Assembly (NCBI GenBank): GCA_963748215.1
Contig: CAVVHS010000007.1
Location: 352,001 to 416,000 of the forward strand
Reading direction: 5' to 3'
From: an uncultured Gammaproteobacteria bacterium
Lineage (GTDB): Bacteria > Pseudomonadota > Gammaproteobacteria > UBA9214
DNA: 64,000 nt
Positions 37,755-64,000 of the stretch are shown here, piece after piece. Below the pieces are notes generated by a model. That model made no database searches and was not told the origin of the DNA. It saw nothing but the letters and a program-made list of their open reading frames with translations. Both the position numbers and the translations under genes were made by a program. Every line of letters starts with the position of its first letter. Position 1 is the stretch's first letter.

Positions 37755-39272
37755 GTGAAGCCCGGTCCCGTCATGCTGGTGATCTTCGATGGCTTCGGGC
37801 TCAATCCGAGTCGCGCGCACAATGCCTGGGCGCTGGCGCGTACGCCGCACCTCGACCACTACTTCGCCAGCTGGCCGCATTCCGTGCTGCAGGCCTCCGG
37901 TCGCGCCGTGGGATTGCCGGACGGGCAGTTCGGCAACTCCGAGGTCGGCCACCTGACGCTCGGTTCGGGGCGTATCCTGGAACAGGACCTGGTACGCATT
38001 GCCAATGCGATCTACGACGGCCGGCTCGCACACAACCCGGTCTGGCAGGATATGCTGCAGGGCGCCCGGCGCCTGCACCTGGTGGGCATGGTGTCCGATG
38101 GTGGCGTGCATTCCCACATCGAACACCTGTATGGCGTACTCGACCTGCTGCATGACAGCGGCATCGAGCCCGTGCTGCACATGATCACCGACGGGCGCGA
38201 TACTGCACCGCGGGCCGCACTGGACTATCTCGATCGACTCGAGGACAAGCTGACGCGCCTGGGCACGGGGACCATTGCCACAGTATGCGGGCGCTATTGC
38301 GCCATGGACCGTGCCAGGAACTGGGACCGTACCGAGCGTGCCTGGCGCTGCCTGGTGCGGGCAGACGGGTTGACGGCGGCATCGGTGCGCGCCGCCATCG
38401 AGTCCGCCTATGCACGCGGTGAAGGTGACGAGTTTATCCAGCCCACCGTGATAACAGGCTACCAGGGCATGGATCTGTCCGATCCGGTGTTGTGTTTCAA
38501 CTTCCGCAGCGACCGCATGCGCCAGCTGGCGGCCGCGTTCGGCCTGGCGGAGTTTGATGCCTTTGCGCGCGACGGCAGTGTGCTGCAACGCCTGGTATGC
38601 ATGACCGAATATGATGCGAATTACCCGTTTCCGGTGCTATTCGAGCCGCAATCGCCGCAAGGGGTGCTGGCCGAGCTGATCAGCGCCGCCGGGCTGCGCC
38701 AGCTGCACTGTGCCGAGACCGAGAAATACCCGCACGTCACCTATTTCTTCAACGGCGGCCGCGAACAGCCTTACGCCGGAGAGGAGCGCATCATCGTGCC
38801 ATCGCCCACCGTGGCCACCTACGACATGCAGCCGGAAATGAGCGCGGACAGGGTCGCGGACGAACTGGTCAAGGCCATAGAAAGCGCGCAGTATGATTTC
38901 ATAGTGACCAATTTTGCCAACACCGACATGGTCGGACACACCGCGCGCCGCGAGGCCGTGATCAAGGCCGTGGAGACTATCGACAACGAGAGCCACCGGG
39001 TATTCCGCGCGGCGCTGGAACGCGGCTGGCGCATCCTGCTGACGGCCGATCATGGCAATTGCGACGAAATGGTCAATCCCAATACCGGCGAACCCCATAC
39101 CCAGCACAGTGAGTACCCGGTACCGTTCCTGATCATGGGTGCGGGACCGGTGCGACTGGGGACCGGACGCGGCCTGGCGGACATCGCGCCTACCATCCTC
39201 GATCTGCTGGGTTTGCCACGGCCGCCGGAGATGACCGGGCACAGCCTGATACTGAGAGACGGACTGTTGTGA
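37755..39272 (+). CDS. gpmI: 2,3-bisphosphoglycerate-independent phosphoglycerate mutase
   Basis: GLPDGQFGNSEVGH, SDGGVHSH, AETEKYPHVT, DMVGHT, TADHGN. Confidence 0.95.
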   Translation: MKPGPVMLVIFDGFGLNPSRAHNAWALARTPHLDHYFASWPHSVLQASGRAVGLPDGQFGNSEVGHLTLGSGRILEQDLVRIANAIYDGRLAHNPVWQDMLQGARRLHLVGMVSDGGVHSHIEHLYGVLDLLHDSGIEPVLHMITDGRDTAPRAALDYLDRLEDKLTRLGTGTIATVCGRYCAMDRARNWDRTERAWRCLVRADGLTAASVRAAIESAYARGEGDEFIQPTVITGYQGMDLSDPVLCFNFRSDRMRQLAAAFGLAEFDAFARDGSVLQRLVCMTEYDANYPFPVLFEPQSPQGVLAELISAAGLRQLHCAETEKYPHVTYFFNGGREQPYAGEERIIVPSPTVATYDMQPEMSADRVADELVKAIESAQYDFIVTNFANTDMVGHTARREAVIKAVETIDNESHRVFRAALERGWRILLTADHGNCDEMVNPNTGEPHTQHSEYPVPFLIMGAGPVRLGTGRGLADIAPTILDLLGLPRPPEMTGHSLILRDGLL

Positions 39273-39282
39273 ACCGGAGACA

Positions 39283-40242
39283 GTGATGAACGATACCCGC
39301 ACTTCCGACATTGCCGTGCTGGCGCACAACCCGGCCGTGGATATCAGCTACGAGGTGGCGCAACTGGTCGCCGATCGCAAGGTGCGCGCGGACCGTACCC
39401 GCTATTTTCCGGGCGGCAACGGCATCAATGTGGCCCGGGCGCTGGCCGAACTGGCGACGCCGTTTCGCTGTTGCAGCGTGGTCGGCGGCGAAAGCGGCGA
39501 TCTGCTGCTGCGCCTGCTCGGTGACCGGTTCGAAGACAATTACAGCATCTTCCGGGTCGCGGGCGAGACCCGGGTCAATGCCACCCTGCTGCAGAAGTCA
39601 CCACCGACCCAGTACGAGGTGGACAGTTGCGGGCCCGAGATACCGCCCGAAATCCTGGACGCTATGGATCGCTGTTTTCTTGCCGACTGCGGCAAAGGAT
39701 TCGGCGTGCTGAGCGGTTCGAACCCGCCCGGCGTACCGGATTCACATCGCCGCCTGCTGGCGGAACAGCTCGGGGCGCAGGGCGGCAGGGCGGTGGTGGA
39801 TGCCTACGGCCCGGTGTTGCAGGAGGCGTTGCAGGCGAACCCGTACCTGCTGCGGCTTAATCGCTACGTGCTGGAAATGACCACCATGCGGCGCCTGGAA
39901 AGCATCGAGGTGGTTGCCGCTGCCGCGCGCGAATTGCAGCAGGGCGGTGTCGAGATCGTCTGCATCTCGCTCGGGGCGGACGGCGCCATCCTGGCCGAGG
40001 CGCAGAACAGCTATCACTGTGCCGCGCCGCGCATGCACGTGCAGTCCACGGTCGGTTGTGGCGACGCGCTGCTGGCCGGCCTGGTGTCCGCTGCCGCGCA
40101 TGGCGCGGATGCACAGGCGATGCTGCGACTCGGTGTCGTGTGCGGCACGGCCACGGCCGCGCACCCGGGAACGGAATTGTTCAGCATCGAGGAAATCGAG
40201 CCTCTGTCCGCCCGGGTGCAGGTGACCGTGCTGGATATCTGA
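39283..40242 (+). CDS. PfkB/FruK-family hexose-phosphate kinase
   Basis: NPAVD, PGGNGINVAR, STVGCGDA. Confidence 0.87.
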   Translation: MMNDTRTSDIAVLAHNPAVDISYEVAQLVADRKVRADRTRYFPGGNGINVARALAELATPFRCCSVVGGESGDLLLRLLGDRFEDNYSIFRVAGETRVNATLLQKSPPTQYEVDSCGPEIPPEILDAMDRCFLADCGKGFGVLSGSNPPGVPDSHRRLLAEQLGAQGGRAVVDAYGPVLQEALQANPYLLRLNRYVLEMTTMRRLESIEVVAAAARELQQGGVEIVCISLGADGAILAEAQNSYHCAAPRMHVQSTVGCGDALLAGLVSAAAHGADAQAMLRLGVVCGTATAAHPGTELFSIEEIEPLSARVQVTVLDI

Positions 40243-40305
40243 TGGTGGGCCGGGTACCGTGGCATGAAAGGGTGACAACTATCCGTTCTGGTGGATTGGG
40301 GGTAG

Positions 40306-40347
40306 TTGACAAATATCAAGGCCGTGGTCTGCAAGCTCTGCTAGTAT
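40306..40347 (+). promoter_or_regulatory. FNR-type box with class II promoter geometry
   Basis: TTGAC-AAAT-ATCAA (40306-40319); TG-C-TAGTAT extended -10 at 40342-40347. Confidence 0.7.
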
Positions 40348-40398
40348 TTTAAATTGCCGGAGATTGTGCTGGTAGGCATGGCCCGGGGGGGGGCAGCC

Positions 40399-40587
40399 AT
40401 GAAAGACAAAAACACCACAGCCACGCAGGTCGCTCCGACTGACATCCTGAACGCCAGGAACAGCCTGGAGCTGATGTTGCTCGAATACGGCAACGTCCAT
40501 ATCGAAACACTTGGCCAGCTGCTCAGCCTGACCAGGACGGTTGAAATCGAATACTCGCATATTTGCGCCCACCGCCTTTGCCAATGA
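40399..40587 (+). CDS. Small hypothetical protein downstream of the FNR-type promoter
   Basis: 62 aa MKDKNTT...HICAHRLCQ; G-rich RBS region. Confidence 0.5.
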   Translation: MKDKNTTATQVAPTDILNARNSLELMLLEYGNVHIETLGQLLSLTRTVEIEYSHICAHRLCQ

Positions 40588-40627: not shown

Positions 40628-43216
40628 CTACAGCCAGCGCATCAATCCGCATTCCAGCGGATGACTGAGCTGATGGTGGCAGGGATAGTAGCGAATCTTG
40701 AACTGCTGCAGACCGCCCGCCGAACAGACATTCTCCATATCGAACAGATCGCAGCGGAACAGCGTGGCGCCGTCCGCGTGGGTGCCGGACAGGTAGAACA
40801 GCCGCTTGTGGGTCGTCTCGAAGTTCTCATCCTCGTCGATCCGCCCCAGGACGCATTCCACGACGATATCGTCCGGCTGCAGGCCATTGAGCTGCAGCGC
40901 CACTTCGAATGACAGCATTTCGCCGGCCTGGATCGTGGCCGGCACCGGCGAGACCAGCTGCCCGCGCACGGCCGGCCAGGCGCTGGCGACCTGCTGCTTC
41001 CAGGTCGCCAGCTCGCGTGCGCCTTCCGCCGCGTTGGCGGCCAGGCGACGGCCTTCGCGCGCCGCGGGGGAGTAGGACTGCGCCAGGTAATCCATGGCCA
41101 TGCGGATGGTGTTGAAACGCGGCAGGATCGTCTTCATCGAGGCGCGGGCGATGCGCAGCCATTCATCCGAGTAACCCTCGCCGTTACGCGTGTAGTAAGC
41201 GGGGATGACCTGGTATTCAAGAATGTTCATCAACTCCACCGCCTCCAGCTGCTCGCGGGTCTCGCGGTCGAACTCGGGGTGCGGCGTGATGCTCCAGCCA
41301 TTCTCGCCATTCCAGGCCTCGGCCCACCAGCCGTCGGTGACGCTGAGGTTGATGGCGCCGTTGATGGCGGCCTTCATGCCTGAGGTGCCGCAGGCCTCCA
41401 TCGGGTATTCCGGCGTGTTCAGCCAGACGTCGACGCCGGGCAGGAAATCGCGCGTCAGCGAGAGGTTGTAGTTCTCCAGCAGGATGACCCGGCCCTGGAA
41501 TTCCGGGAGCAGGCTGATTTCGAAAATCCTGCGCAGCAACGCCTGCCCCGGCTGGTCGTTGGGATGCGCCTTGCCGGCAAAGACCAGCGTGACCGGTCGC
41601 TGCGGGTCGTTGACCAGACGGGCCAGGCGTTCCAGGTCCCGGAAGATCAGGCCGGCACGCTTGTAGGTCGCGAAGCGGCGCGCGAAGCCGATCAGCAGGG
41701 TGTTGATGTTGCGCGAGGTCAGGTTCGCGGTGAGCCTGCTGGACAGCGACTTGGTGCGCGCACAGCGCTCGTATTGCTGCACTGCACGCTCCCGGATTTC
41801 GTCGATGGCCGCGGCCTTCAGCAGTTGCCGTACGCTGAGGAAGACGTGATCGGGGATCTGGTCGATGAAGCTGTCCCAGAACCCGGTGTCGGTCAGCTTG
41901 GCGCGCCAGCCGCCGCCCATGTACATCTCGAACAGCGCCACCCAGGAACCTGCCAGGTAGCTGTCCACATCGGCGCCGTTGGTGATGTAGCCCATGGGGT
42001 TTTCCGCGACCTGGATCTCCGGCCACGCGTACGACTCCATCTCCGCTGCAATACCGCCGTGGATCCGGCTGACACCGTTGCGGTAGCGCGAGCCGCGCAC
42101 GGCAAGCGAGGTGGTACAGAAACCGTTCGGGTCGCGCGGGTTCGCGCCCAGGGCGAGGAACTGCGCCTCGCTGATGCCCAGGTCATTGGCCGTGTTGCCG
42201 AAATAGTTGCGCATCATGCCGTGGTCGAACACATCGTGACCGGCGGTCACCGGCGTATGGGTGGTGAACGCCGTGGCGGCGGCCACCAGTTCCAGCGCAC
42301 TCGGGAAATCCAGGCCGCTCGTGACCTGCTCGTGGCAGCGCTCCAGTATCTGGAAGGCGGCATGGCCTTCGTTGATGTGCCAGACCGTGGGGTGCAGCTG
42401 CAGGGCGCGCAGGGCGCGCACGCCGCCGATGCCGAGAATGACTTCCTGCTGGATGCGGGTTTCGCGATAGCCGCCGTAGAGCTGTGCCGTCAATTCGCGA
42501 TCGGTCGGACTGTTGTCCTCGACGTCGCTGTCCAGCAGCAACAGGCGAATATGCCCGGCGCGCGCCTCCCAGACGCGCAGTACCAGGCTGCGTCCAGGGA
42601 GGTCGACGCGGACCTTCACTTCCTCGCCGTTGCTGTCCAGCGCCGGGGTTACCGGCAGGTCGCAGGGATCGCTGCGCCGGTAGGTGGCGATCTGGTTGCC
42701 ATTGCAGTCGAAGCGCTGCGTGAAATAGCCGTGCCGGTAAAGGATGCCGATGCCCACAAACGGCACCCACAGGTTGCTCATGGCCTTGCAGTAATCGGCG
42801 GCCAGGATGCCGAGCCCGCCGGCGTAGATGGGCATGCTTTCGTGGAAACCGTACTCGGCGGAGAAATAGGCGATCAGGTCGGCCTTCGAGTCAATGAGCC
42901 TCTCGATGCGCATGCTCGGCATCTGTTCCATGTAGGTATCGTAGCCGGACAGTGTTTGCCGGTATTCGGTCAGCAGGATCGGGTCCTGTGCCGCCTGGTT
43001 GATACGGTCCTGTCGCAGCCGGCGCAGGAATACCCGGGGATTGTGGTCGGAGGCATCCCAGCACTCGGGGTCCAGGTGGCGGAACAGGCGCCGGACGCTG
43101 CGATTCCAGCTGTAATACAGGTCATTGCCGAGCTCGCCAAGGCGTTCGAAGCGCCTGGGCAGGGTCGCCTGGATCTCTACACTGAAGGAAGTGCCGTTAC
43201 GGGTCTTGTCGTTCAT
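40628..43216 (-). CDS. glgP: Alpha-glucan (glycogen/maltodextrin) phosphorylase
   Basis: AYFSAEYG, YAGGLGILAAD, HINEGH, FARRFATYKRA, EACGTSGMKA (PLP lysine). Confidence 0.94.
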   Translation of the reverse strand: MNDKTRNGTSFSVEIQATLPRRFERLGELGNDLYYSWNRSVRRLFRHLDPECWDASDHNPRVFLRRLRQDRINQAAQDPILLTEYRQTLSGYDTYMEQMPSMRIERLIDSKADLIAYFSAEYGFHESMPIYAGGLGILAADYCKAMSNLWVPFVGIGILYRHGYFTQRFDCNGNQIATYRRSDPCDLPVTPALDSNGEEVKVRVDLPGRSLVLRVWEARAGHIRLLLLDSDVEDNSPTDRELTAQLYGGYRETRIQQEVILGIGGVRALRALQLHPTVWHINEGHAAFQILERCHEQVTSGLDFPSALELVAAATAFTTHTPVTAGHDVFDHGMMRNYFGNTANDLGISEAQFLALGANPRDPNGFCTTSLAVRGSRYRNGVSRIHGGIAAEMESYAWPEIQVAENPMGYITNGADVDSYLAGSWVALFEMYMGGGWRAKLTDTGFWDSFIDQIPDHVFLSVRQLLKAAAIDEIRERAVQQYERCARTKSLSSRLTANLTSRNINTLLIGFARRFATYKRAGLIFRDLERLARLVNDPQRPVTLVFAGKAHPNDQPGQALLRRIFEISLLPEFQGRVILLENYNLSLTRDFLPGVDVWLNTPEYPMEACGTSGMKAAINGAINLSVTDGWWAEAWNGENGWSITPHPEFDRETREQLEAVELMNILEYQVIPAYYTRNGEGYSDEWLRIARASMKTILPRFNTIRMAMDYLAQSYSPAAREGRRLAANAAEGARELATWKQQVASAWPAVRGQLVSPVPATIQAGEMLSFEVALQLNGLQPDDIVVECVLGRIDEDENFETTHKRLFYLSGTHADGATLFRCDLFDMENVCSAGGLQQFKIRYYPCHHQLSHPLECGLMRWL

Positions 43217-43254: not shown

Positions 43255-44946
43255 TCAGGGTTCCGGTTCCATTACGATATAGGCCGATGGGCATTCGCGG
43301 GCACATATGCCGCAGCCCTTGCAGAAGTCGTAATCAAACACGTAGTACGAGCCGTCTTCGACCGGGCTGCGCGTCTTCAGCACCGCGACGTCCGGGCACA
43401 GGGTCCAGCAGTTGTCGCAGGCCAGGCAATTGCCGCAGGAAAGGCAGCGCAGGGCTTCCTGCGCTGCCTGCTGTGGCGCCAGACCGCCGATGATTTCGGC
43501 ATCGCCGACGCGCTCAGCGACAGCTAGTGTCGGTGCATGCTGGCGGGATTTCGGCTCGAAGTAATTCAGATTGATCTGCGCAGCCGTCACCGGGACTGCC
43601 GCGCGGTCATCGGGGTCGGCCTGACGCTGCACGTCGCGCGCCATGGCCAGCGCGGCGCGCCGCCCGTCGCCGATGGCGCCGCTCACCGTGCCACCGCCGC
43701 CACGCGCGTCGCCGCCGGTGTACAGACCCGGGTGTCCGCGGATGCGGCCATGTTCGCTGGCGGTAAGGAATTCACGCTGCCCGAGCAGCGAGGCCAGGCC
43801 GGCCGGGTCGACGGTCTGGCCGATGGCGGGTATGACCTGTTCGACATGCAGCAGGGTTTCCGTGCCTTCAAAGGAGACGGAGCGGGTGCTGTTGTCGGCC
43901 TCGTGCAGTTTTTTCCGGTGTACGAGTTCCAGGCCGACCACCTGTTCGCCGCGCAGCACCAGGCGCTGCACACCGCGGTGTTCGTGAATGATCACGCCTT
44001 CCTCCATGGCCTGCTCGATTTCACGCGCGATGGCCGGCATGGTGTCCGGCTGCTCGACGCCTGCGCGCGGCAGTGACTCGTGCGTGACCACGTGCACCGC
44101 CTCCACGCCACAGCGTTTGAGGATGCGCGCCAGGTCGATGGCCGTGTTGCCGCCGCCGATGATGGCCGCACTGGACCAGCCGGGCATCGAGCCGACATCC
44201 AGCCAGCGCTTCAGCAGGTCGAGTCCGACGTGCAGGTCGTGCGGCGTGGCACCGTCGATGTCCCAGTCACGGCTGCGCTGGGTGCCCGGCGCCAGAAACA
44301 CCGCCGCGTATTCGGCGTGCAGTTCATCGAGCGAGAAATCCCGCCCGAGCCGTTGCCCCGGGCGGAACGCGATACCGCTGGCCAGCAGGCGTTCGAGTTC
44401 CGGGTCGAGCACGTTGCGCGGCAGGCGGTAAGGTGGCAGGGCGCTGCGCAGCAGGCCGCCGGCTACCGGCAGGGCCTCGAACAGATCCACCCGGTAACCG
44501 AGCCGGGTCAGCTGCCAGGCCGCGGAACAACCGGCCGGTCCGCTGCCGACGACCGCTATGGCCTGTGCACCGTGCGCGACCGGCTGCGCCGGGTAGTCCC
44601 AGCCGGCGGCGATGGCCTGGTCACCCAGCCAGCGCTCCACGTGGTGGATGGCGATCGGTTCGTCGTAGTGGCCGCGGTTGCAGACCTGTTCGCAGGGATG
44701 GTGGCAGACCCGTCCGGTAATCGCGGGCAGCGGATTCGCCGCGACGATGGTTTCCCACGCCTCGCGGTATCGTTCTTCGGCGGCCAGTGCCAGCCAGGCC
44801 TGGCCGTCCTCGCCGGCCGGGCAGGCGGTGTGGCAGGGCGCCGGCCGGTGTTGATGCACCGGGCGTTCGATACGCCAGCTGCCGGTGTGGTAGCGCAGCG
44901 AGGTGCCCGGGTGTGCGAATGCGCCACGTGTCAGCTTCAGGCCCAC
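43255..44946 (-). CDS. PorD (delta) / GltD-NfnB-like FAD-NAD(P) oxidoreductase fusion with C-terminal 2x[4Fe-4S]
   Basis: N-terminal PGTS..YHTGSWR..RPV (PorD start), PCHTACPAG and GRVCHHPCEQVCNR FeS motifs, GSGPAG and GGGNTA Rossmann motifs, CLACDNCWTLCPD and DFCKGCGICARECP. Confidence 0.85.
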   Translation of the reverse strand: MGLKLTRGAFAHPGTSLRYHTGSWRIERPVHQHRPAPCHTACPAGEDGQAWLALAAEERYREAWETIVAANPLPAITGRVCHHPCEQVCNRGHYDEPIAIHHVERWLGDQAIAAGWDYPAQPVAHGAQAIAVVGSGPAGCSAAWQLTRLGYRVDLFEALPVAGGLLRSALPPYRLPRNVLDPELERLLASGIAFRPGQRLGRDFSLDELHAEYAAVFLAPGTQRSRDWDIDGATPHDLHVGLDLLKRWLDVGSMPGWSSAAIIGGGNTAIDLARILKRCGVEAVHVVTHESLPRAGVEQPDTMPAIAREIEQAMEEGVIIHEHRGVQRLVLRGEQVVGLELVHRKKLHEADNSTRSVSFEGTETLLHVEQVIPAIGQTVDPAGLASLLGQREFLTASEHGRIRGHPGLYTGGDARGGGGTVSGAIGDGRRAALAMARDVQRQADPDDRAAVPVTAAQINLNYFEPKSRQHAPTLAVAERVGDAEIIGGLAPQQAAQEALRCLSCGNCLACDNCWTLCPDVAVLKTRSPVEDGSYYVFDYDFCKGCGICARECPSAYIVMEPEP

Positions 44947-45911: not shown

Positions 45912-45946
45912 GGGGTCGGTCGAGTTTCCATGCAATGCTCCTGTGT

Positions 45947-47116: not shown

Positions 47117-47675
47117 GTGGACCCTCCTGCCAGGCGCCGGTATCGACCTCCGCCGCGGCGCGTTCGACCAGTTGCCGGTTTTTTTCGAGTACTGCGCCAT
47201 GGAAACGCTCGCCCAGGGCCTTGAGCAGCGCACTGCGCGGCAGCAGGCCGGTCAGTTCCAGGAACGCCGATAACAGCGCGGTATTCGGTACCGGCCGGCC
47301 GAGAATTTCCTGCGCCATTGCGCCGGCCGGCAGGGCGACGACGTTGCAACCCAGTTGTTCGGCGAGTTCGGCACTGGTGCGGTTCGAGTTGACCAGTATC
47401 GCACCGCCGGTCTGCAGTCCCGCCGTGATGTCAGACAGGTGCAGCAGGGTGTCGTCCTGTACGATGAGGAAGGCAGGTTCAAGTACCTGGCAGCGGCGCC
47501 GGATCGGCCGGTCGGCGATGCGCACGAACGCCGTGACCGGAGCGCCGCGCCGTTCGGCGCCGAAATTCGGGAACGCCTGCGGGTAGAGACCTTCCTCGAA
47601 GGCCGCGGCGGCAAGCAGGTAGGCGGCGACCACATTGCCCTGGCCGCCGCGGCCGTGGATACGGATTTCGATCAT
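47100..47675 (-). CDS. porC: Pyruvate/2-oxoacid:ferredoxin oxidoreductase gamma subunit
   Basis: EIRIHGRGGQG, FGAERRGAPV. Confidence 0.9.
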   Translation of the reverse strand: MIEIRIHGRGGQGNVVAAYLLAAAAFEEGLYPQAFPNFGAERRGAPVTAFVRIADRPIRRRCQVLEPAFLIVQDDTLLHLSDITAGLQTGGAILVNSNRTSAELAEQLGCNVVALPAGAMAQEILGRPVPNTALLSAFLELTGLLPRSALLKALGERFHGAVLEKNRQLVERAAAEVDTGAWQEGPHAVRA

Positions 47676-50280: not shown

Positions 50281-50366
50281 ATAAAGTGTGATTGTGCCCA
50301 GGCATGTTGACGAGCATGCCATGAAGCATATATCAGTCTTGCCCGGAACATCTGTCTGGGTGCAAA

Positions 50367-56450: not shown

Positions 56451-57355
56451 TGGACTGGCAGACGGTGTTGTTCGATGTCGTGGTCATGCCGCTGGTGGCC
56501 TTTATCGTCGGGCTGCTGCTGGTGCTGATGATGCGCCGCACGCGCGCCCGGCTCGAGCGCCGCGTCGGGCCGCCGTTCTTCCAGCCGCTGTACGACATCC
56601 TCAAGCTGTATTCCAAGGATATCCAGGTCTCGCACGGTTTCATCCATGACCTGGGCATCATCATGGTGGTCGGTGGCTACATTACGGTGGAGATGTTCCT
56701 GCCGGTGCCGGGCATGGTCGGGCTGGCCGAGAAGGGCGACCTGATCGCGCTGGTGTACCTGATGATGGTGCCGTCGCTGGGCATGGCACTGGGCGTCGGC
56801 CAGTGCGCCAACCCGAACGGCTCGATCGGCATTTCGCGTGCGCTGACTTCCATGCTCGGCTACGACATTCCGTTCGTGCTGGTCGTGGTCGCGGCCGCGG
56901 CGATGTACGGCACCACCAGCCTGCCGGAGATCATCGCCATCCAGCAGCAGGGTGGAATCTCGACCTGGGGTATTGCGAGCATGCCGGTCATGGCGCTGGC
57001 CGGCTTAATCACCACTCACGTGATGCTGGCCAAGGAGCCGTTCGAGACCTACATCGCGCCGGCCGAGATCGCCACCGGGCCGATGGTCGAGATGGGCGGC
57101 AAGTTCATGGGCGGTTTGTTCGTCGTACAGACCTTTCAGGTCTATACTGCAGGTGTGCTGTTCACGACGCTGTTTCTGGGCGGCGGCGTCACCTGGTTCG
57201 ATTTTCTGCCAAAGGTGTTTGCCGTGCTGTTCCTGCCGTTCGCCATCACCATCCTGTATCCGCGTTACAAGGCCGGAGAAGGGTTACTCTGGGTGTGGAA
57301 ATGGCCGACCGGTATCGCGCTGCTGGGACTGGCGCTGATCTTTATGCAGAGGTGA
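56450..57355 (+). CDS. Mbx subunit M (NuoH-like)
   Basis: ARLERRVGPPFFQPLYDILKL, PFE...EIATGPMVE. Confidence 0.88.
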   Translation: MDWQTVLFDVVVMPLVAFIVGLLLVLMMRRTRARLERRVGPPFFQPLYDILKLYSKDIQVSHGFIHDLGIIMVVGGYITVEMFLPVPGMVGLAEKGDLIALVYLMMVPSLGMALGVGQCANPNGSIGISRALTSMLGYDIPFVLVVVAAAAMYGTTSLPEIIAIQQQGGISTWGIASMPVMALAGLITTHVMLAKEPFETYIAPAEIATGPMVEMGGKFMGGLFVVQTFQVYTAGVLFTTLFLGGGVTWFDFLPKVFAVLFLPFAITILYPRYKAGEGLLWVWKWPTGIALLGLALIFMQR

Positions 57356-57359
57356 GACC

Positions 57360-58091
57360 ATGAGCGACAAGCAACTCGAAATTCCGGTTACACAGGGCAG
57401 CCCTGCGCCCGGCGGCGGCAATCCCTATCGCGGCGTGTTTGACCGCCTGCAGGATTTCTGCCGCGCCCGCTCGCTGTTCATGCTGCATTACTGTACCGGC
57501 TGCGGGGCCATCGAGCTGCCACCGGCGATGACCTCGCGCTACGACATGGAGCGGCTCGGTATCCAGCCCATGGCCACGCCGCGCCAGGCGGACATCCTGC
57601 TGGTCACCGGCTATGTCGCCACCAAGACCCTGAAGCGCATCCTGCTGACCTACGAGCAGATGAGCGCGCCGCGCTATGTGATCGGCATCTGCTCCTGCAC
57701 CGTGAATGGCGGCATGTACTGGCAGAGCTACGCCACGGTGAAGAAACTTAACGACTACCTGCCGGTCGATATGTACATCGCCGGCTGCATGCCGCGCCCG
57801 GAGGCGGTCATCGTTGGCCTGCAGAAGCTGATGGAGAAGATCGATGCCGGCCGCGCGGAGTCCTGGAAGGACTACTACCGCAACTACGACTATTACCTGG
57901 GCAAGCAGCAGACGCTGTTCGGCGAACGCTGGCAGACGCCGACCGACATCATCGCCGAGGCGCGCCGCTACGACTTGTTCGGGCCGGACACGCTGGGATC
58001 ACACACCGCGCTGCTGGAGCAGTACCAGACGCCGCTGGAGATGCCGTCTACCCCGGTGTTCGGGCGCGAGCGCGAGAAAATCGAGCGGTAG
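57360..58091 (+). CDS. Mbx subunit J (NuoB-like FeS subunit)
   Basis: YCTGCGAIELPP, RYDMERLG, PRQAD, CSCTVNGG, GCMPRPE. Confidence 0.9.
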   Translation: MSDKQLEIPVTQGSPAPGGGNPYRGVFDRLQDFCRARSLFMLHYCTGCGAIELPPAMTSRYDMERLGIQPMATPRQADILLVTGYVATKTLKRILLTYEQMSAPRYVIGICSCTVNGGMYWQSYATVKKLNDYLPVDMYIAGCMPRPEAVIVGLQKLMEKIDAGRAESWKDYYRNYDYYLGKQQTLFGERWQTPTDIIAEARRYDLFGPDTLGSHTALLEQYQTPLEMPSTPVFGREREKIER

Positions 58092-58172
58092 ATCGCGCCA
58101 TAAGCACCGCCCGGATCTATGGTGCGCGTGGCGCACCCTACAAAAGGGAAATTAACCCCGCAGGCAAATTTC

Positions 58173-58712
58173 ATGGATAGCGGCAAGGAACTGGTCAACT
58201 GGCTGGACAAGGTGCTGGAGGAATTCCAGGGTGTGCAGGTGCGGCGCAAGAGCACCTCGCGCGTGCGCGTCGACGTGGATGCCGACGCGCTGCCGGCGCT
58301 GCTGGAGCTGCTGCAGGGGCGCGCCGGCTACGTGCACCTGTCCGCGCTGAGTTGCGTGGACTGGATCGACGACAACGAGTTCGAGCTGGTCTACCACGTG
58401 TGGTCCTACGAGACCCGCTCGCTGGTATCCGCGCACATCCGCATCCCGCGCGAGCCGGGGGCCTACCTCTCGGTCTACGACATCTACAAGCCGGCGGCCT
58501 TTTTCGAGCGCGACATCTTCGAAATGTTCGGCGTGTTCTTCGAGGGCAGTCCGCACATGGAGAAATTCATTCTCACCGAGTGGGACGGGCCGCCGCCGAT
58601 GCGCAAGGAATTCGATACCCGCCAGTACGTGCACGACACCTTCGACTGGCAGCAGTACAACCCGGAGTGGCTGCAGGAGATCCGCGCCAAGGGCGGGGGG
58701 ATCGTCGAATGA
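58173..58712 (+). CDS. Mbx subunit K (NuoC-like)
   Basis: SCVDW, FELVYH, FERDIFEMFGVFFEG, PPMRKEF; start may lie upstream at 58119. Confidence 0.88.
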   Translation: MDSGKELVNWLDKVLEEFQGVQVRRKSTSRVRVDVDADALPALLELLQGRAGYVHLSALSCVDWIDDNEFELVYHVWSYETRSLVSAHIRIPREPGAYLSVYDIYKPAAFFERDIFEMFGVFFEGSPHMEKFILTEWDGPPPMRKEFDTRQYVHDTFDWQQYNPEWLQEIRAKGGGIVE

Positions 58713-59851
58713 GGCCCGAGAACTACCAGGCGGTCAGTCATCCGCCCAGCCACGAATTCGAGCTGAATATCGGCCCCAACCACCCCGGCATCGAGGGCAA
58801 CTACGCGCTCAAGCTGAAGCTGGAGGGCGACATCGTGGTGGCGGCAAAGGCCGACGCCGGCTACCTGCACCGCGGCTTCGAGAAGCTCATGGAAGGCCGG
58901 TTGTGGATGCAGAACATTGCGCTGGTGCCGCGCATCTGCGTGCCGGACCCGGCGCACATGGAGATCTGCTACGCGCTGGGCGTGGAAATGCTCGGCGGGC
59001 TGGAGGTGCCGGAGCGCGCGCAGTGGCTGCGTGTCATGCAGCTGGAGCTGTCGCGCCTCACCGCGCACCTGTTCTATTTCGGCGGCGCCGCCGCCACCAT
59101 GGGCATGTACAGCAACATGTTCTGGGGCGTGTCCGACCGCGACCTGATACTCGACCTGTTCGAGGAATTCACCGGCGGGCGCGTGTACAGCATGTACAAC
59201 GTGCCCGGCGGCGTGCGCCGCGACCTGCCCGAGGGCTTCATCGGTCGCCTGGTGTCGCTGCTGGATTACCTCGATTCGCGCCTGGACGACTACGACAACC
59301 TGTTCTTCACCAACTACGTGATGGTGCACCGCACGCGCGGCACCGGTGCCATGAACCAGCAGCAGGCGCTGGAATGGGGCGTGACCGGACCCAACCTGCG
59401 TTCCACCGGGCTGGCCTTCGACGTACGCCGTGACGATCCCTACCTGGTGTACGACCAGCTCGAGTTCGACATCCCGGTCGAGGAGGCCGGCGACGCGCTG
59501 TCGCGTATCCTGGTGCGGCGCAACGAGTTGATACAGAGCATCCGCATCCTGCGCCAGGTGGCCGAGCGCCTGCCGTCGATCGGCGGGCCGGTGCGCTGCC
59601 CGCTGCCCAATCCGCTGGCCTGGAACGTGCCGGCCGGCGAGAGCTACGCGCGCGTGGAATCCTCCAAGGGCGAGCTGGCCTACTACACCGTCTCCAATGG
59701 CAGCGACAAGCCGTGGCGCGTGCACATCCGCGGGCCGTCACAGATGCATGGCGTGCAGGTGCTGGAGAACCTCTGCATCGGCGCGCGCATCGAGGACGTC
59801 GCCCAGATCATTTTCACTCTCGACGCCTGTCCGCCGGAGGTCGACCGCTGA
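58709..59851 (+). CDS. Mbx subunit L (NuoD/[NiFe] large-subunit-like, no Ni ligands)
   Basis: IGPNHPG, GYLHRGFEK, RICVPDP and DACPPEVDR: one Cys in each of the two hydrogenase CxxC positions. Confidence 0.9.
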   Translation: MRPENYQAVSHPPSHEFELNIGPNHPGIEGNYALKLKLEGDIVVAAKADAGYLHRGFEKLMEGRLWMQNIALVPRICVPDPAHMEICYALGVEMLGGLEVPERAQWLRVMQLELSRLTAHLFYFGGAAATMGMYSNMFWGVSDRDLILDLFEEFTGGRVYSMYNVPGGVRRDLPEGFIGRLVSLLDYLDSRLDDYDNLFFTNYVMVHRTRGTGAMNQQQALEWGVTGPNLRSTGLAFDVRRDDPYLVYDQLEFDIPVEEAGDALSRILVRRNELIQSIRILRQVAERLPSIGGPVRCPLPNPLAWNVPAGESYARVESSKGELAYYTVSNGSDKPWRVHIRGPSQMHGVQVLENLCIGARIEDVAQIIFTLDACPPEVDR

Positions 59852-61686
59852 TGGCCGATATCGATTACAAGAGCCGCGGCAGCATCCTCAACCCGCTGCG
59901 CAACCTGTCGTTCCTGACGCGCAAGCCGGTCACGCTGCCGCTCGAACCGCGCGAGGCCTCGGCCAATTACCGCGGCTTTCACCTCAACGACTGGGAAAAG
60001 TGCATCGGCTGCAGCACCTGCCAGAAGATCTGCGACAACGAAGCGATTACCATGATCCACATCCCGGACCTGCCGGAGGACCCGATCAAGGGGGTGCGGG
60101 CGCAGCGACCGGCCATCGATTACGGCCGCTGCTGCTGGTGCGGCCTGTGTGTGGACATCTGTCCGACGGCGTCGCTGTCGCTGTCGCGCGAGTACGTGCA
60201 TACCTGCGAGGAACACGAGCTGGACAGCTATTTCATCCTGCCCGACCCGCAGGGCATGCACAAGAAGTTCTACGGCCACGGCTGGCGCAAGACCGCGGAC
60301 GAGGATCTAATTGACCTCGAGCGCCAGGCCATGCCCGAGCAGCCGGCGGAACAGCGCCTGCAGTCGTTCGGCGAATTCGTGCAGGGTTACGACATGCAGC
60401 AGGCCATCGTCGAGGCATCGCGATGCGTGCAGTGCGGCATGTGCCACGATTCCTGCCCGGCACACATGAACGCACCGGAATATATCCGCGCCATCTGGGA
60501 ACAGGACCTGGAGGAGGCGGTGCGCCAGATCTACCGCACCAACCCGTTCGCGCACGTGTGCGGGCGCGTTTGCACGCGGCGCTGCGAGGCGGCCTGTTCC
60601 ATCGGCGTACGGGGCGAGCCGGTGGCTATCCGCTGGCTGAAGCGATATGCCATGGACAGCGTCGGCCATGAACGCATACGCGAGATTGCAGGCGAGGGGC
60701 GTGGCGACTATCTCAGCGGTGGCAAGGTTGCGGTGATCGGTGCCGGACCCGCCGGCCTGACCGCGGCCTTCGACCTGGCACGGCACGGCCACAGCGTCAC
60801 GGTGTACGAGGCGCAGCCGGCGGCGGGCGGCATGATGCGCTACGGCATCCCGGCCTACCGGTTGCCGTACGCGCGCATCGACGACGACGTCGACGTGATT
60901 CGCGCCATGGGCGTCGACATCCAGTACAATACGCGCATTGGCCGCGATATTTCCATGTCGCAGCTGCAGGCGGACTACGATGGCGTACTGCTGGCCATCG
61001 GCCTGTGGAACGGTCGCTCCACGCGCGTGCCCGGTTCGGACCACGCACAGGTGCGCAGTGCGGTCGAGCTGCTGCGCGAGATCACGCTCAACGAGTCCTT
61101 GACGGTGCCGCAGTCGGCTGTGGTCATCGGCGGTGGCAATACCGCCATGGATATCGCGCGCAGCATGGCACGCCTGCAGCTCGTGCAATACGGACAGGCC
61201 AATATCACGCTTACCGCACTGGAAGACGCCGATCACTTGCTGGCCGACCCGGTGGAGATCCGCGAGACCGACGAGGAAGGCATTACCATCCTGCCGGGGC
61301 GCGGTCCGCGCCGCTGCATGATGGACGAGCAGGGCCGGCTGGTCGGGCTGGAGACCGTGCGCGTGGTGTCGCTGCATGACGAACAGGGCCGCTTCGCGCC
61401 GCAATACGACGACGGCGATGTGCAGATGCACGTCGCGGATATGGTGATCGAGGCCATCGGCCAGCAGGCGGACACCTCGCTGCTGAGCGTGGAACTTACC
61501 GAGGCGCTGGAATGGGAGCGCGGCCGGATCAAGACCGATGCCGGCGGTCGCAGCTCGGTCGGCTGGCTGTGGGCGGCCGGCGACGTGGTTACGGGGCCGG
61601 ATGTTATCCACGCCGTGGCCGACGGGCACCGCGTCGCAGCCAGCATCGAGGCCTGCCTGGGACAGGAGAGATATGCCAATGGGTAG
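59851..61686 (+). CDS. Mbx subunit N (NuoI-like 2x[4Fe-4S]) fused to a GltD/SudA/NfnB-like FAD-NAD(P) oxidoreductase
   Basis: CIGCSTCQKIC and CCWCGLCVDICP; then EASRCVQC..C...CPAH, CGRVCTRRCE..C, GAGPAG, GGGNTAMD, AAGDVVTG. Confidence 0.9.
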   Translation: MADIDYKSRGSILNPLRNLSFLTRKPVTLPLEPREASANYRGFHLNDWEKCIGCSTCQKICDNEAITMIHIPDLPEDPIKGVRAQRPAIDYGRCCWCGLCVDICPTASLSLSREYVHTCEEHELDSYFILPDPQGMHKKFYGHGWRKTADEDLIDLERQAMPEQPAEQRLQSFGEFVQGYDMQQAIVEASRCVQCGMCHDSCPAHMNAPEYIRAIWEQDLEEAVRQIYRTNPFAHVCGRVCTRRCEAACSIGVRGEPVAIRWLKRYAMDSVGHERIREIAGEGRGDYLSGGKVAVIGAGPAGLTAAFDLARHGHSVTVYEAQPAAGGMMRYGIPAYRLPYARIDDDVDVIRAMGVDIQYNTRIGRDISMSQLQADYDGVLLAIGLWNGRSTRVPGSDHAQVRSAVELLREITLNESLTVPQSAVVIGGGNTAMDIARSMARLQLVQYGQANITLTALEDADHLLADPVEIRETDEEGITILPGRGPRRCMMDEQGRLVGLETVRVVSLHDEQGRFAPQYDDGDVQMHVADMVIEAIGQQADTSLLSVELTEALEWERGRIKTDAGGRSSVGWLWAAGDVVTGPDVIHAVADGHRVAASIEACLGQERYANG

Positions 61687-62580: not shown

Positions 62581-62607
62581 GGGATGATCAGGGTTACCTT
62601 GAATAAA

Positions 62608-62773
62608 TAGCCACGGAAACACACGGAAGAACACGGAATGAATCTGGATTTTTCCGTGTTCTTCCGTGTTCTTCCGTGGATTCCGTGGCAATAATAACTG
62701 GCTGCATTAATGCCACAGCAATCACCGAATAACGCTTATGTGATCAGAATATTTCCGTGATTTCCGTGGCCAT
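62608..62773. repeat. CACGGAA-type repeats forming a hairpin, plus one extra copy
   Basis: GCCACGGAAACACACGGAAGAACACGGAA then TTCCGTGTTCTTCCGTGTTCTTCCGTGGATTCCGTGGC; TTTCCGTGATTTCCGTGGCCAT at ~62752. Confidence 0.85.
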
Positions 62774-62843
62774 AATCCAGCTTTACAGAATTTGCGGACA
62801 GGCTGTATGGTGTGACCTGCATAGGTAACAACAGGGGACAATA

Positions 62844-63860
62844 ATGCAACTGGGAATGATCGGCCTCGGGCGCATGGGCGCCAACATGGTTCAGCGCCTG
62901 ATGCGTGCCGGGCACGAATGCGTGGTCTACGACCGCAACCCGGAGGCGGTGCATGGCCTGGAGTCGCACGGTGCGTTCGGCACCACCAATCTCGACGGCT
63001 TTATCGCCAGCCTCGACAAGCCGCGCGCCATCTGGCTGATGGTGCCGGCCGCCGTGGTCGACCGCGTGATCGACGAGCTGGCGCCGCAGCTCGAGGCGGG
63101 CGACATCCTGATCGACGGCGGTAATTCGTATTACCGTGACGACATCATGCGCGCCGCTCAGTTGCAGGCACGCGGTATCCACTATCTCGACGTCGGCACC
63201 AGCGGCGGTGTGTGGGGCCTGGAGCGCGGCTACTGCCTGATGATCGGCGGCGAGCAGGATATCGTCGCGCACCTCGAGCCGCTGTTTTCCACGCTGGCAC
63301 CGGGTGTCGGCGACATCCCGCGCACGCAGGGCCGCAGCGGTCCGCCGGCGCGCGCCGAACAGGGCTACCTGCACTGTGGTCCGGCCGGCGCCGGGCACTT
63401 CGTGAAAATGGTGCATAACGGCATCGAGTACGGCCTGATGGCAGCCTACGCCGAGGGTCTGAACATTCTGGCGCACGCCAATGTCGGCAACGACGGGCAT
63501 GCCGAGGACGCCGAGACCACGCCGCTGCGCGACCCGGACGCGTTCCGCTACGATATCGACCTCGCCGCGGTGACCGAGCTGTGGCGGCGTGGCAGCGTGG
63601 TCAGTTCGTGGCTGCTGGATCTCACCGCAGAGGCGCTGCAGCGCAGCCCCGACCTGGCGGAGTTCAGCGGTCACGTGTCCGATTCCGGCGAGGGCCGCTG
63701 GACCAGCATCGCCGCCATCGAGTGCGGTGCGCCGGCACGCGTGCTGACCACGGCGCTGTACGACCGTTTCACCTCGCGCGGCGAATCGGACTTCGCCGAC
63801 AAGGTGCTGTCCGCCATGCGCTTCGGTTTCGGCGGGCATCATGAGAAACGTGAATCGTGA
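62844..63860 (+). CDS. gnd: 6-phosphogluconate dehydrogenase, decarboxylating (short, probably NAD-preferring type)
   Basis: GMIGLGRMG, YDRN, IDGGNS, GHFVKMVHNGIEYG, DSGEGRW, MRFGFGGH; 338 aa. Confidence 0.92.
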   Translation: MQLGMIGLGRMGANMVQRLMRAGHECVVYDRNPEAVHGLESHGAFGTTNLDGFIASLDKPRAIWLMVPAAVVDRVIDELAPQLEAGDILIDGGNSYYRDDIMRAAQLQARGIHYLDVGTSGGVWGLERGYCLMIGGEQDIVAHLEPLFSTLAPGVGDIPRTQGRSGPPARAEQGYLHCGPAGAGHFVKMVHNGIEYGLMAAYAEGLNILAHANVGNDGHAEDAETTPLRDPDAFRYDIDLAAVTELWRRGSVVSSWLLDLTAEALQRSPDLAEFSGHVSDSGEGRWTSIAAIECGAPARVLTTALYDRFTSRGESDFADKVLSAMRFGFGGHHEKRES

Positions 63861-63870
63861 GAGGTGATTT

Positions 63871-64000
63871 GTGAGTGAGGTCGACACGGCGTCCCCCAGT
63901 GTCATGGTGATCTTCGGCGCCGGCGGGGACCTGACCCGGCGCAAGCTGATTCCGGCCATCTACTACCTGTGCCGCGATGGCCTCCTGCCGGAGACCTTTG
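63871..64000 (+). CDS. zwf: Glucose-6-phosphate dehydrogenase, N-terminus (runs off the window)
   Basis: Read manually: [24 protein letters not shown]. Confidence 0.85.

Follow-up and report, generated by a model that had tools for sequence, protein, structure and literature searches.

How a bacterium that stores both sulfur and carbon reduces the one with the other under anoxia is a question to which the locus described here may offer an answer. It lies in a 64,000-nt stretch from an uncultured gammaproteobacterium of the UBA9214 lineage (contig CAVVHS010000007.1, positions 352,001 to 416,000; hereafter the window), in which the operon of an Mrp-Mbx complex, a relative of the archaeal membrane-bound sulfane reductase (MBS), diverges from an operon encoding phosphoenolpyruvate (PEP) synthase (ppsA), pyruvate oxidoreductase (POR) and glycogen phosphorylase (glgP). 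An initial annotation of the stretch had proposed an anoxic route from glycogen to sulfur. That proposal stands as far as the MBS-type complex, a host with Dsr sulfur genes and a linkage conserved in the host's family are concerned, whereas the most likely link between the two operons has changed from ferredoxin to NADH: the MbxN subunit and the POR delta domain are each fused to a flavoprotein resembling NfnB and GltD. Taken together, the gene linkage, the co-occurrence with Dsr and an alternation with Na+-NQR at the same chromosomal slot make the NfnB-fused complex a concrete and testable candidate for the enzyme route of stored-sulfur respiration.

An MBS-type complex

Coordinates are positions in the window, and gene calls come from Pfam and NCBIfam scans with inspection of start codons. 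The mbx operon proper spans 50578-61686 and ends with an appended rubrerythrin-like gene:

50578-51105, + strand: MbxA/MnhE (Pfam MNHE)
51102-51368, + strand: MbxB/MnhF (Pfam MrpF_PhaF)
51365-51697, + strand: MbxC/MnhG (Pfam PhaG_MnhG_YufB)
51697-51990, + strand: MbxD (Pfam MbhD)
51990-52679, + strand: MbxE/MnhB (Pfam MbhE and MnhB)
52676-53134, + strand: MbxG/MnhC (Pfam Oxidored_q2)
53134-54591, + strand: antiporter-like subunit H, 485 aa (Pfam Proton_antipo_M)
54588-56450, + strand: longer antiporter-like subunit H', about 620 aa (Pfam Proton_antipo_M)
56450-57355, + strand: M, NuoH-like (Pfam)
57360-58091, + strand: J, NuoB-like (Pfam; 6u8y_J match)
58119-58712, + strand: K, NuoC-like (Pfam)
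58709-59851, + strand: L, NuoD-like (Pfam; 6u8y_L match)
59851-61686, + strand: two-[4Fe-4S] MbxN and an NfnB/GltD-like FAD/NAD(P)H flavoprotein joined in one open reading frame (ORF) of 611 aa
61673-62206, + strand: rubrerythrin-like di-iron protein lacking a rubredoxin domain, last gene of the operon (Pfam Rubrerythrin)

The operon had been annotated as a complete Mrp-Mbx set, and indeed all thirteen MBS genes are present, arranged by Pfam as MnhE, MnhF, MnhG, MbhD, MbhE/MnhB, MnhC, H, H', M, J, K, L and N. This is the subunit order of Pyrococcus furiosus MBS (MbsA-N, 6U8Y), with the same Mrp module and the same pair H and H'. According to the main text of the MBS structure paper, MBS has two antiporter-like subunits where the membrane-bound hydrogenase (MBH) has one; the present operon, having two, sides with MBS. 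The same text describes H and H' as two proton pumps and assigns sulfane reduction to the site-differentiated proximal cluster (PMC7684303).

The complex is also a true MBS/Mbx relative at its catalytic subunits, MBS being the best solved relative of L, J and the N domain. L aligns over its full length with MbsL (6u8y_L) at 388 bits, compared with 269 for Thermus Nqo4 and 123 for MbhL, and retains two of the four [NiFe] cysteines, as does MbsL (C85, C385), the second Cys of each pair being missing. Where Thermus Nqo4 (2fug_4) has the quinone ligands His38 and Tyr87 (numbering checked against PMC4758237), L has Glu and Val. J matches MbsJ (6u8y_J) at 220 bits and MbhJ at 104, its alignment with MbsJ running without gaps across the CxxC loop, which in MBS is shortened so that one proximal-cluster iron stays free, and two further cluster cysteines; the loop motif has the same length as in MbsJ, and the tandem cysteines of complex I are not present. 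The Pfam families of NuoE, NuoF and NuoG are absent from the genes of the operon. A stand-alone, ferredoxin-accepting N is the only defining feature of MBS that the sequence lacks. Further differences from the P. furiosus enzyme are the appended rubrerythrin-like gene and the host, which is a bacterial, mesophilic sulfur oxidizer in which the complex is known from its genes.

The MbxN-flavoprotein fusion and its likely nucleotide

Residues 7-131 of the fusion match the MBS subunit 6u8y_N and residues 157-606 match the NfnB-type modules 5jca_L, 4ylf_B, 9bov_A and 8oh5_C. NCBIfam PRK13984 covers the full length (803.8 bits, cut-off 946), and full-length relatives were found at 66-93% identity, close ones carrying such names as Gammaproteobacteria, Chromatiales and Ectothiorhodospiraceae metagenome-assembled genomes (MAGs). 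Like the NfnB/SudA and GltD flavoproteins (5JCA, 4YLF, 2VDC; modules 9BOV and 8OH5), both fused modules of the locus, that of MbxN and that of the POR delta domain PorD, combine a Fer4_20 two-cluster domain with an FAD/NAD(P) domain in a full-length alignment. They differ from these proteins in being fused to MbxN or PorD and in their lack of an NfnA-like partner ([2Fe-2S] plus a second FAD), for which only the two operons were examined and which neither encodes. The fusion makes a pyridine nucleotide the likely partner of the complex in place of the free ferredoxin of P. furiosus MBS.

The fusions fall into two types. Of 54 genomes surveyed in the host's family, 10 carry the type found here (type 1, at least 67% identity), 12 carry a second type (38-42%) and 32 have only ordinary GltD-like matches. 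G000 denotes the genome of the window, other G-numbers the further genomes compared and L-numbers the loci fetched. Following its second Rossmann strand, the solved NfnB-type module 9bov_A has the residues YRR, the motif that holds the phosphate of NADPH, whereas an acidic residue in this loop usually goes with NADH. Type-1 fusions from all phyla sampled have the acidic T(A/C)LE(D) at this position, the type-2 fusion of G043 has YRR, and the POR-linked module of the present locus has THES. It would appear from this motif that the type-1 Mbx fusion prefers NADH.

The second type belongs to an Mbx complex whose subunits are 30-46% identical to those described here, with about 40% identity in the fusion. 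In G043 (L024, L025), which has the YRR fusion, the type-2 mbx genes are followed on the same strand by ppsA, a gene pair resembling 2-oxoacid:ferredoxin oxidoreductases (OFORs) and, nearby, glgP.

The rubrerythrin-like gene is a recurrent companion of the fusion gene, which it follows in 37 loci and in all 14 downstream flanks fetched from genomes of the class. In those 37 loci, nearly all of them proteobacterial records, the fusion is at least 56% identical to the one described here. More distant full-length relatives (41-49% identity) with adjacent mbx genes occur in Spirochaetota, Planctomycetota (Pirellulales, Sedimentisphaerales), Zixibacteria, Chitinispirillaceae and others, and none of these 20 loci has a rubrerythrin-like gene. 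The protein probably protects an oxygen-sensitive complex, a role that its restriction to nearly all-proteobacterial loci would fit in organisms that meet oxygen. Fusion and rubrerythrin-like genes at 60% identity were also encountered in Ca. Parabeggiatoa (L053:3481-5265) and Thiomargarita (L056:10001-11779), with no other mbx genes within 3.4-10 kb upstream; there, the pair is either detached from its operon or stands alone.

The divergent ppsA-POR-glgP operon

On the other strand, an operon running in the order ppsA-porGAB-flavoprotein-glgP diverges from mbx:

47745-50170, - strand: ppsA, PEP synthase, in three reading-frame pieces (Pfam PPDK_N, PEP-utilizers and PEP-utilizers_C over two ORFs)
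47100-47675, - strand: porG, gamma subunit (Pfam POR; NCBIfam TIGR02175 above cut-off)
45947-47116, - strand: porA, alpha subunit (Pfam POR_N, PFOR_II)
44937-45935, - strand: porB, TPP-binding beta subunit (Pfam TPP_enzyme_C; NCBIfam PorB 368.5 bits, cut-off 405)
43255-44946, - strand: PorD-fused NfnB/GltD-like FAD flavoprotein, last gene of the POR set (Pfam Fer4_20, Pyr_redox_2, Fer4; GTG start at 44946 inferred)
40628-43216, - strand: glgP, alpha-glucan (glycogen/maltodextrin) phosphorylase of the DUF3417 type (Pfam DUF3417, Phosphorylase; NCBIfam TIGR02094 at 732.7 bits, exceeding the cut-off)

The POR had been described as a four-part enzyme. Its alpha, beta and gamma subunits are indeed separate, but the two-cluster PorD domain that completes the parts list of PorABCD enzymes is here the C-terminal domain of a 563-aa fusion (43255-44946) with an NfnB-like flavoprotein. 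The best solved matches of that fusion are the NfnB-type proteins 9n5u_A, 9bov_A and 4ylf_B; PRK12771 covers its full length at 483.5 bits (cut-off 516) and PorD_KorD matches residues 477-533. The Por subunits find their best NCBIfam matches among Por models, most equivalog scores falling just below the cut-offs, and they are also matched, below cut-offs, by models named for NADH-dependent 2-oxoacid oxidoreductase (phenylglyoxylate dehydrogenase). These NAD+-linked OFORs, so called after the model names, are the counterpart for what the fused flavoprotein suggests, namely that this POR probably reduces NAD(P)+ directly. As the reduction of acetyl-CoA and CO2 by NAD(P)H is strongly uphill, an NAD(P)-linked POR should run in the oxidative direction.

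POR is not the sole pyruvate-oxidizing enzyme of the host, a possibility that we rejected: PDH-type E1-alpha and SucA-type genes exist, although no AceE-type E1 does. Since a PDH-type E1 alpha is available, POR would constitute an additional route of pyruvate oxidation and not the only one. Similarly, the initial annotation drew on Pps working glycolytically, as it does in Thermococcales, and this direction is not required in a genome with two pyruvate kinases.

Linkage and co-occurrence across genomes

Within the family, the arrangement is well conserved. Five type-1 genomes offered long enough contigs (G000, G030, G044, G051 and G017), and ppsA diverges from mbxA in 5/5; porGAB, the flavoprotein gene and glgP follow ppsA in all of these except G017, and gpmI-pfkB comes after glgP in 3/4. 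Outside the family, the sample comprised 18 genomes, five reached through loci and 13 genomes of the class with flanks. In the former (three gammaproteobacterial MAGs, one Thiothrix MAG and one Thiobacillus MAG), ppsA and glgP lie on other contigs than mbx (0/5 linked). Among the latter, G075 carries ppsA-porG-porA-porB-flavoprotein immediately upstream of mbxA and in the same orientation, with a glgP homolog 9 kb past the rubrerythrin gene. In G167, the rubrerythrin gene is followed at once by ppsA, an NfnB-like gene and an OFOR. A distant OFOR is all that G317 has in the vicinity of mbx, and the remaining ten have none of ppsA, POR and glgP there. Thus, ppsA and a 2-oxoacid oxidoreductase adjoin mbx in 2/18 non-family genomes, rearranged relative to the family. 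The proposed co-localization of ppsA, por, glgP and mbx is therefore conserved inside the family and, outside it, extends in those two genomes to ppsA and the oxidoreductase, the glycogen linkage (glgP, gpmI, pfkB and gnd) being mostly a family feature. The recurrent partner of mbx is ppsA together with a flavoprotein-linked POR.

Co-occurrence was scored in a class sample of 401 genomes containing 20 fusion carriers, 18 of them type 1 (G000 and G051 included), these 18 spanning at least 14 families; these counts are descriptive, as related genomes are not independent. A close porA ortholog (at least 58% identity) is present in 8/18 type-1 carriers and in 15/383 other genomes (44% vs 4%), and porA matches at E up to 1e-60 in 11/18 and 34/383, respectively. 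In the family survey, the POR ortholog was found in 13/54 genomes, including 7/10 type-1 carriers. The correlation with Dsr that the initial annotation had suggested examining is complete on the carriers' side: dsrB is encoded by 18/18 type-1 carriers, compared with 103 of the 382 others scored.

FNR-type palindromes

The divergent promoters had also been noted for FNR-type boxes. The FNR/FixK consensus is TTGAT-N4-ATCAA, and its exact core, TTGA-N6-TCAA, occurs twice in the window where 0.31 sites are expected, a count reached by 1/100 shuffles. The candidate sites, with the small ORF that accompanies one of them, are:

50267-50280, no strand: palindrome of the FNR/FixK type, TTGAC-N4-GTCAA, between the diverging ppsA and mbx genes, centred about 103 nt from the start codon of ppsA
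50367-50380, no strand: second, imperfect FNR-like site, TGAT-N4-GTCAA, lying about 200 nt ahead of mbxA and differing from the consensus at two positions
40306-40319, no strand: FNR/FixK-type palindrome TTGA-N6-TCAA, about 85 nt upstream of the 62-aa ORF
40399-40587, + strand: small ORF (62 aa) that shows a codon-like pattern of conservation in G030 and G044

The cores at 50267 and 40306 are exact, but with two mismatches to the full consensus. The divergent region thus does contain an exact core, and the box is kept within the family: at 50267 it occupies the aligned position in four of the five family genomes aligned (G000, G030, G044 and G051) and is displaced in G017. The flanks of the imperfect site at 50367 are conserved in G030, G044 and G051. 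The box at 40306 and the 62-aa ORF, located between pfkB and glgP, have equivalents in G030 and G044 (3/3 at the aligned position); the ORF gave no Pfam match at E up to 1. These FNR/FixK-type sites suggest low-oxygen induction. A 97-aa ORF at 50288-50581 was rejected as a gene, having no Pfam match and sitting in a poorly conserved part of the divergent region.

Alternation with Na+-NQR at the same slot

Two congeners without mbx, G047 and G052, have a slot of about 12 kb that is bounded by gnd and, at its opposite end, by ppsA-porGAB-flavoprotein-glgP / pfkB-gpmI. The slot holds a rubrerythrin-like gene, a UbiA prenyltransferase gene, nqrA-F with apbE, and a gene for a flavoprotein resembling sulfide:quinone oxidoreductase or flavocytochrome c sulfide dehydrogenase (SQR/FCSD) with two CBS domains (L129:4201-15452 in G047; L131 in G052; L133 and L015 in G044). 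In G044, the NQR block and the rubrerythrin-mbx block stand in tandem between gnd and ppsA, whereas G000 and G030 have only mbx at the slot, and no NqrA was found anywhere in G000. NqrA occurs in 14/54 family genomes. A strict replacement of mbx by NQR is rejected, as the two stand in tandem in G044 and coexist in the genome of G051.

Na+-NQR is an NADH-oxidizing enzyme. We take the presence of this unrelated, ion-pumping NADH oxidizer in the slot, which it occupies in G047 and G052 and shares with mbx in G044, as support for an NADH-oxidizing, ion-motive fused Mbx complex. The job proposed for Mbx, NADH oxidation coupled to ion pumping, is that of both Na+-NQR and complex I. The Na+-NQR proteins are unrelated to those of Mbx, however, and both Na+-NQR and complex I reduce quinone, whereas Mbx L lacks the quinone-binding residues. 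The SQR-like/CBS protein beside NQR may itself connect quinone and sulfur chemistry.

The host genome

The host genome (3.52 Mb, 9 contigs, 95% complete) carries dsrAB followed by dsrE, the latter read by eye from its translation, together with RuBisCO, glgA, [NiFe] hydrogenase, a canonical nuoD (C6:1020290-1021187), the two pyruvate kinases, PDH-type E1 alpha and SucA. The sulfur-oxidation genes that the initial annotation called for are accordingly present, and gene content marks the host as an autotrophic, Dsr-type sulfur oxidizer predicted to be able to make glycogen.

Gene calls from this assembly need care. A tblastn search with the G030 ortholog recovers ppsA in three frames, which cover aa 1-57, 58-289 and 268-807 of that ortholog at 89-95% identity; the breaks lie near 50000 and near 49303-49361, and the gene is intact in 4/4 relatives (G030, G051, G017 and G043). 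The dsrAB genes (G000:C6:351977-354189) show about 7 frame switches in a protein that is otherwise well conserved, and nuoD is also in pieces; none of the pieces of ppsA, dsrAB or nuoD contains in-frame stops. As dsrAB and nuoD are broken too and ppsA is whole in all four relatives checked, the breaks are probably local indel errors of the assembly.

Two further genes of the host touch on its electron carriers. About 48 kb beyond the window, at G000:C7:459150-464767, a [NiFe] hydrogenase large-subunit gene lies near a GltD/NfnB-like gene and may represent a cytoplasmic NAD(P)-linked (sulf)hydrogenase as discussed for Endoriftia. At G000:C7:79525-80235 there is an RnfD/NqrB-like gene, 33% identical to NqrB of G047, which suggests that the host has an Rnf complex and, with it, a pool of ferredoxin.

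Published counterparts

The complex itself has already been described from genome comparisons. The main text of Degli Esposti 2015 presents mbx-like operons of Thermotoga and proteobacteria with a gltD-related flavoprotein at the NuoI position and a terminal rubrerythrin gene, and reads them as ferredoxin:NAD(P)+ oxidoreductases (PMC4758237). The operon described here shares with them the Mrp-Mbx set, the gltD-like protein at the NuoI position, the final rubrerythrin gene and the vestigial NuoD cysteines; it differs in that NuoI is said there to be substituted, whereas here the NuoI-like two-cluster domain is kept and fused. That main text does not mention ppsA, POR, glycogen genes, co-occurrence with Dsr or alternation with NQR (PMC4758237).

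A closer biological parallel is Endoriftia, the Riftia symbiont, likewise a gammaproteobacterial sulfur oxidizer; tubeworm-symbiont fusion proteins are 70% identical to the fusion described here. Mitchell et al. 2024 report, in their main text, a putative Mrp-Mbx complex for which they suggest reduction of zero-valent sulfur, a role cited from other organisms, and list MBX among the complexes of unknown direction (PMC11636981). Its genes co-express with an anaerobic and reductive tricarboxylic acid (rTCA) set and not with those for the Calvin-Benson-Bassham (CBB) cycle or sulfide oxidation, and under oxygen limitation glycogen catabolism, a pyruvate:ferredoxin oxidoreductase (PFOR) and ppdk rise (PMC11636981). 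Endoriftia differs from the present host in having an rTCA cycle and several OFOR isoforms where we find a single POR, and linkage of ppsA, POR and glgP genes is not reported in that text (PMC11636981). An rTCA link of the Endoriftia kind is unlikely here, porA being the single POR_N gene found in the genome; a search for ATP-citrate lyase gave no match in G000, but its control was also silent, which makes the result uninformative.

Bacteria that store sulfur are known to reduce it at the expense of stored carbon when oxygen is absent. Sulfur respiration is documented for Beggiatoa in a paper that names no enzyme for it, the main text containing neither the word 'enzyme' nor 'reductase' (PMC3253548). 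Among the main texts searched, supplements excluded, we found no paper on ppsA, POR and glgP beside mbx. Judging from the genomes compared, what would be new is the recurrent tie of mbx to ppsA and an NAD-linked POR, along with the family-wide embedding in genes of glycogen and oxidative pentose phosphate metabolism, the finding of dsrB in every type-1 carrier of the class sample, and the alternation with NQR.

Flanking sugar-catabolism genes

The following genes complete the locus on either side of the two operons:

37755-39272, + strand: gpmI, cofactor-independent phosphoglycerate mutase (Pfam Metalloenzyme, iPGM_N), beside pfkB also in G030, G044 and G047
39283-40242, + strand: PfkB-family hexose(-phosphate) kinase (Pfam PfkB; NCBIfam TIGR03168, 'hexose kinase')
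62844-63860, + strand: gnd, short-type 6-phosphogluconate dehydrogenase (Pfam NAD_binding_2, 6PGD; NCBIfam TIGR00872, PRK09599)
63871-64000, + strand: 5' end of zwf, a 507-aa ORF continuing to G000:C7:417394 outside the window

The kinase scores above the cut-off of TIGR03168 (233.6 bits), while the models for 1-phosphofructokinase and 6-phosphofructokinase II stay below theirs, so that the NCBIfam models identify it no further than as a hexose kinase. Gnd exceeds the cut-offs of both TIGR00872, a model named NAD+-dependent, and PRK09599. We presume the next ORF to be zwf, its N-terminus reading as the N-terminal motif of glucose-6-phosphate dehydrogenase, and take the ORF that follows it (C7:417382-418098) to be pgl. 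All genes named in the initial annotation are present by Pfam and NCBIfam; the list was right as far as it went, but it missed both flavoprotein fusions and the rubrerythrin-like gene at the end of the operon.

Proposed function and alternatives

The substrates, direction of electron flow, regulation and ion pumping considered below are deduced from the gene content, homology, fusions, conservation and co-occurrence set out above. In the reading that we favour, and to which we give an even chance, the fused complex would be an anoxically induced, ion-pumping NADH:sulfane-sulfur reductase that re-oxidizes NADH from the NAD-linked POR and glycogen catabolism. Glycogen would be phosphorolysed by the glgP product, with gpmI, pfkB and gnd-zwf-pgl completing sugar catabolism; pyruvate would be oxidized by POR, its electrons passing to NAD+ through the fused flavoprotein, and in this way the divergent ppsA-porGAB-(NfnB-PorD fusion)-glgP operon would supply NADH. 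This NADH would presumably be oxidized at the flavin of the fused Mbx complex, from where, by homology, electrons would pass through the NfnB and MbxN iron-sulfur clusters to an MbsJ-type proximal cluster. There, cytoplasmic sulfane sulfur, in the form of polysulfide or persulfide derived from stored sulfur, would be reduced, driving the translocation of Na+ or H+. On balance, stored carbon would be oxidized with stored sulfur and energy conserved under anoxia. At low sulfide, electron flow from NADH to sulfur would, by our estimate from redox potentials, yield enough energy to move ions.

NADH is the most likely carrier, in place of free ferredoxin, because POR and Mbx each have their own NfnB-like NAD(P)H module. 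The geometry of the complex would allow electrons to travel either from the flavin by way of N and J to the substrate site or in the opposite direction. We prefer the forward mode because an NAD(P)-wired POR should run oxidatively and glgP, pfkB and zwf-gnd-pgl are catabolic; in addition, the palindromes suggest low-oxygen control, NQR alternates with mbx, and the Endoriftia genes go with anaerobic processes.

Several observations weigh against this reading. The sulfane-sulfur acceptor rests only on homology to an archaeal, ferredoxin-using enzyme, and the choice of NADH over NADPH depends on one loop motif. The genome has two pyruvate kinases, and the gluconeogenic role that PpsA usually has in bacteria is ill suited to a catabolic operon if the enzyme neither works in reverse nor is anaplerotic; ppsA is also frame-broken in the host assembly. 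An exact FNR-type core lies upstream of mbxA in 1/13 non-family genomes, which makes the regulatory signal a family trait. The linkage of mbx to ppsA and POR is missing in 16/18 non-family genomes, that to glgP is almost confined to the family, and POR occurs without any mbx in five family genomes. Lastly, the complex is not specific to sulfur storers: the relatives in Spirochaetota, Planctomycetota, Zixibacteria and other phyla are not known as such, although their genomes were not searched for sulfur genes.

A wider form of the proposal, which we advance tentatively and hold to fall somewhat short of an even chance, is that the NfnB-fused MBS is a complex-I-like NADH:sulfur oxidoreductase and the long-missing enzyme of dark, anoxic stored-sulfur respiration in Dsr-type storers, interchangeable in the host's genus with Na+-NQR at the slot as the ion-pumping outlet for NADH. 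The respirers would then include the tubeworm symbionts, the Thiothrix and Thiobacillus MAGs and the window's family, with NADH from NAD-linked POR and glycogen. If so, there would be a gene marker and a testable mechanism for a process that shapes how sulfide flows at oxic-anoxic interfaces and how chemosynthetic symbionts survive, the complex I scaffold would have a natural variant using NADH with sulfur in the place of quinone, and the NAD-linked POR and the alternation of NQR with Mbx would offer simple experimental handles. Even a backward-running or Rnf-like complex would leave a locus that shows how autotrophic sulfur oxidizers balance their reductant.

Reverse operation is the first of the alternatives, and an unlikely one. 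A Na+ or H+ gradient would drive electrons from sulfide or polysulfide to NAD(P)+, yielding cheap reductant for CO2 fixation. The presence of dsrB in every type-1 carrier of the class sample and of RuBisCO in the host is in line with this, and the potentials of the sulfur couple and of NAD+ lie so close together that the energy demand would be small. In principle, members of this superfamily of complexes are also reversible. Yet the conserved FNR-type boxes point to low-oxygen induction, the partners ppsA and NAD-linked POR would gain nothing from extra NADH, and it is an NADH oxidizer, Na+-NQR, that is found in the same slot of congeners. Endoriftia speaks on both sides, for the main text that gives the MBX direction as unknown also has the genes co-expressed with anaerobic processes in place of CBB or sulfide oxidation (PMC11636981). 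A related alternative raised in the initial annotation, in which an ion gradient supplies reductant for carbon assimilation by POR and Pps, fits poorly, as an NAD(P)H-linked POR would need extra energy for pyruvate synthesis.

We assign a similarly low probability to the alternative that mbx and the glycogen and pyruvate genes lie together by descent only and work independently. The 16 non-family genomes with neither ppsA nor POR near mbx, the near absence of glgP there and the POR-bearing family genomes without mbx are what it predicts; so are three type-1 mbx carriers without a POR match, and genomes of one family are not independent observations. Descent alone is harder to reconcile with the four arrangements in which the genes meet: the family has them diverging from mbx, in G075 they precede mbx on the same strand, in G167 they follow it, and in G043 they follow a type-2 mbx. 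It also sits uneasily with the enrichment of the close POR ortholog among carriers (44% vs 4% in the class sample) and with the conserved palindrome common to the divergent promoters.

Rather improbable, in our view, is an Rnf-like ferredoxin:NAD(P)+ oxidoreductase, which would take electrons from reduced ferredoxin, pass them to NAD(P)+ at the GltD-like module and translocate ions without any sulfur chemistry. NfnB-like modules do join ferredoxin and pyridine nucleotides in Nfn enzymes, and the RnfD-like gene hints at a ferredoxin pool in the host. However, electrons going from ferredoxin at N to the flavin attached to that same subunit would not pass the J/L/M coupling site, whose MBS-specific features are conserved gaplessly, and the only 2-oxoacid:ferredoxin oxidoreductase of the genome has its own NAD(P)-linked module. 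This reading was printed in 2015 for the Thermotoga and proteobacterial operons (PMC4758237), using an older view of the Pyrococcus Mbx, which the main text of the structure paper shows to be a sulfane reductase (PMC7684303).

It is very unlikely that the complex is an alternative NADH:quinone oxidoreductase, that is, complex I with the NfnB-like protein in place of NuoEFG. The host does use quinones in respiration and has a canonical nuoD, the slot is taken in congeners by a quinone reductase, Na+-NQR, and the NCBIfam NuoD model PRK06075 scores above its cut-off for L. L nonetheless lacks equivalents of Nqo4 His38 and Tyr87 and lies closer to MbsL than to the best complex I subunit (388 vs 269 bits), while J has the CxxC loop of MBS and not the tandem cysteines of complex I (PMC7684303). 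A bolder idea is electron bifurcation at the NfnB flavin, with the Mbx chain and a ferredoxin as the two acceptors, but nothing points to another way out for electrons, for example through an NfnA partner.

Surroundings of the locus

The region had been called an island, and in composition it is not one: GC is 0.61-0.68 inside and 0.58-0.66 elsewhere in the window. The upstream neighbours (23280-35740) are housekeeping genes, namely typA/bipA and genes for an ABC-F ATPase, efp and an NYN-domain protein. A mobile island was thus rejected on account of its window-like GC, the housekeeping flanks and the same gene order in congeners. Farther upstream, at 10957-12432, 13015-14766 and 14927-18598, the window encodes a protein with bacterial thrombospondin-type repeats and a dockerin domain, adjoined by two large ORFs (583 and 1223 aa) without a Pfam match.

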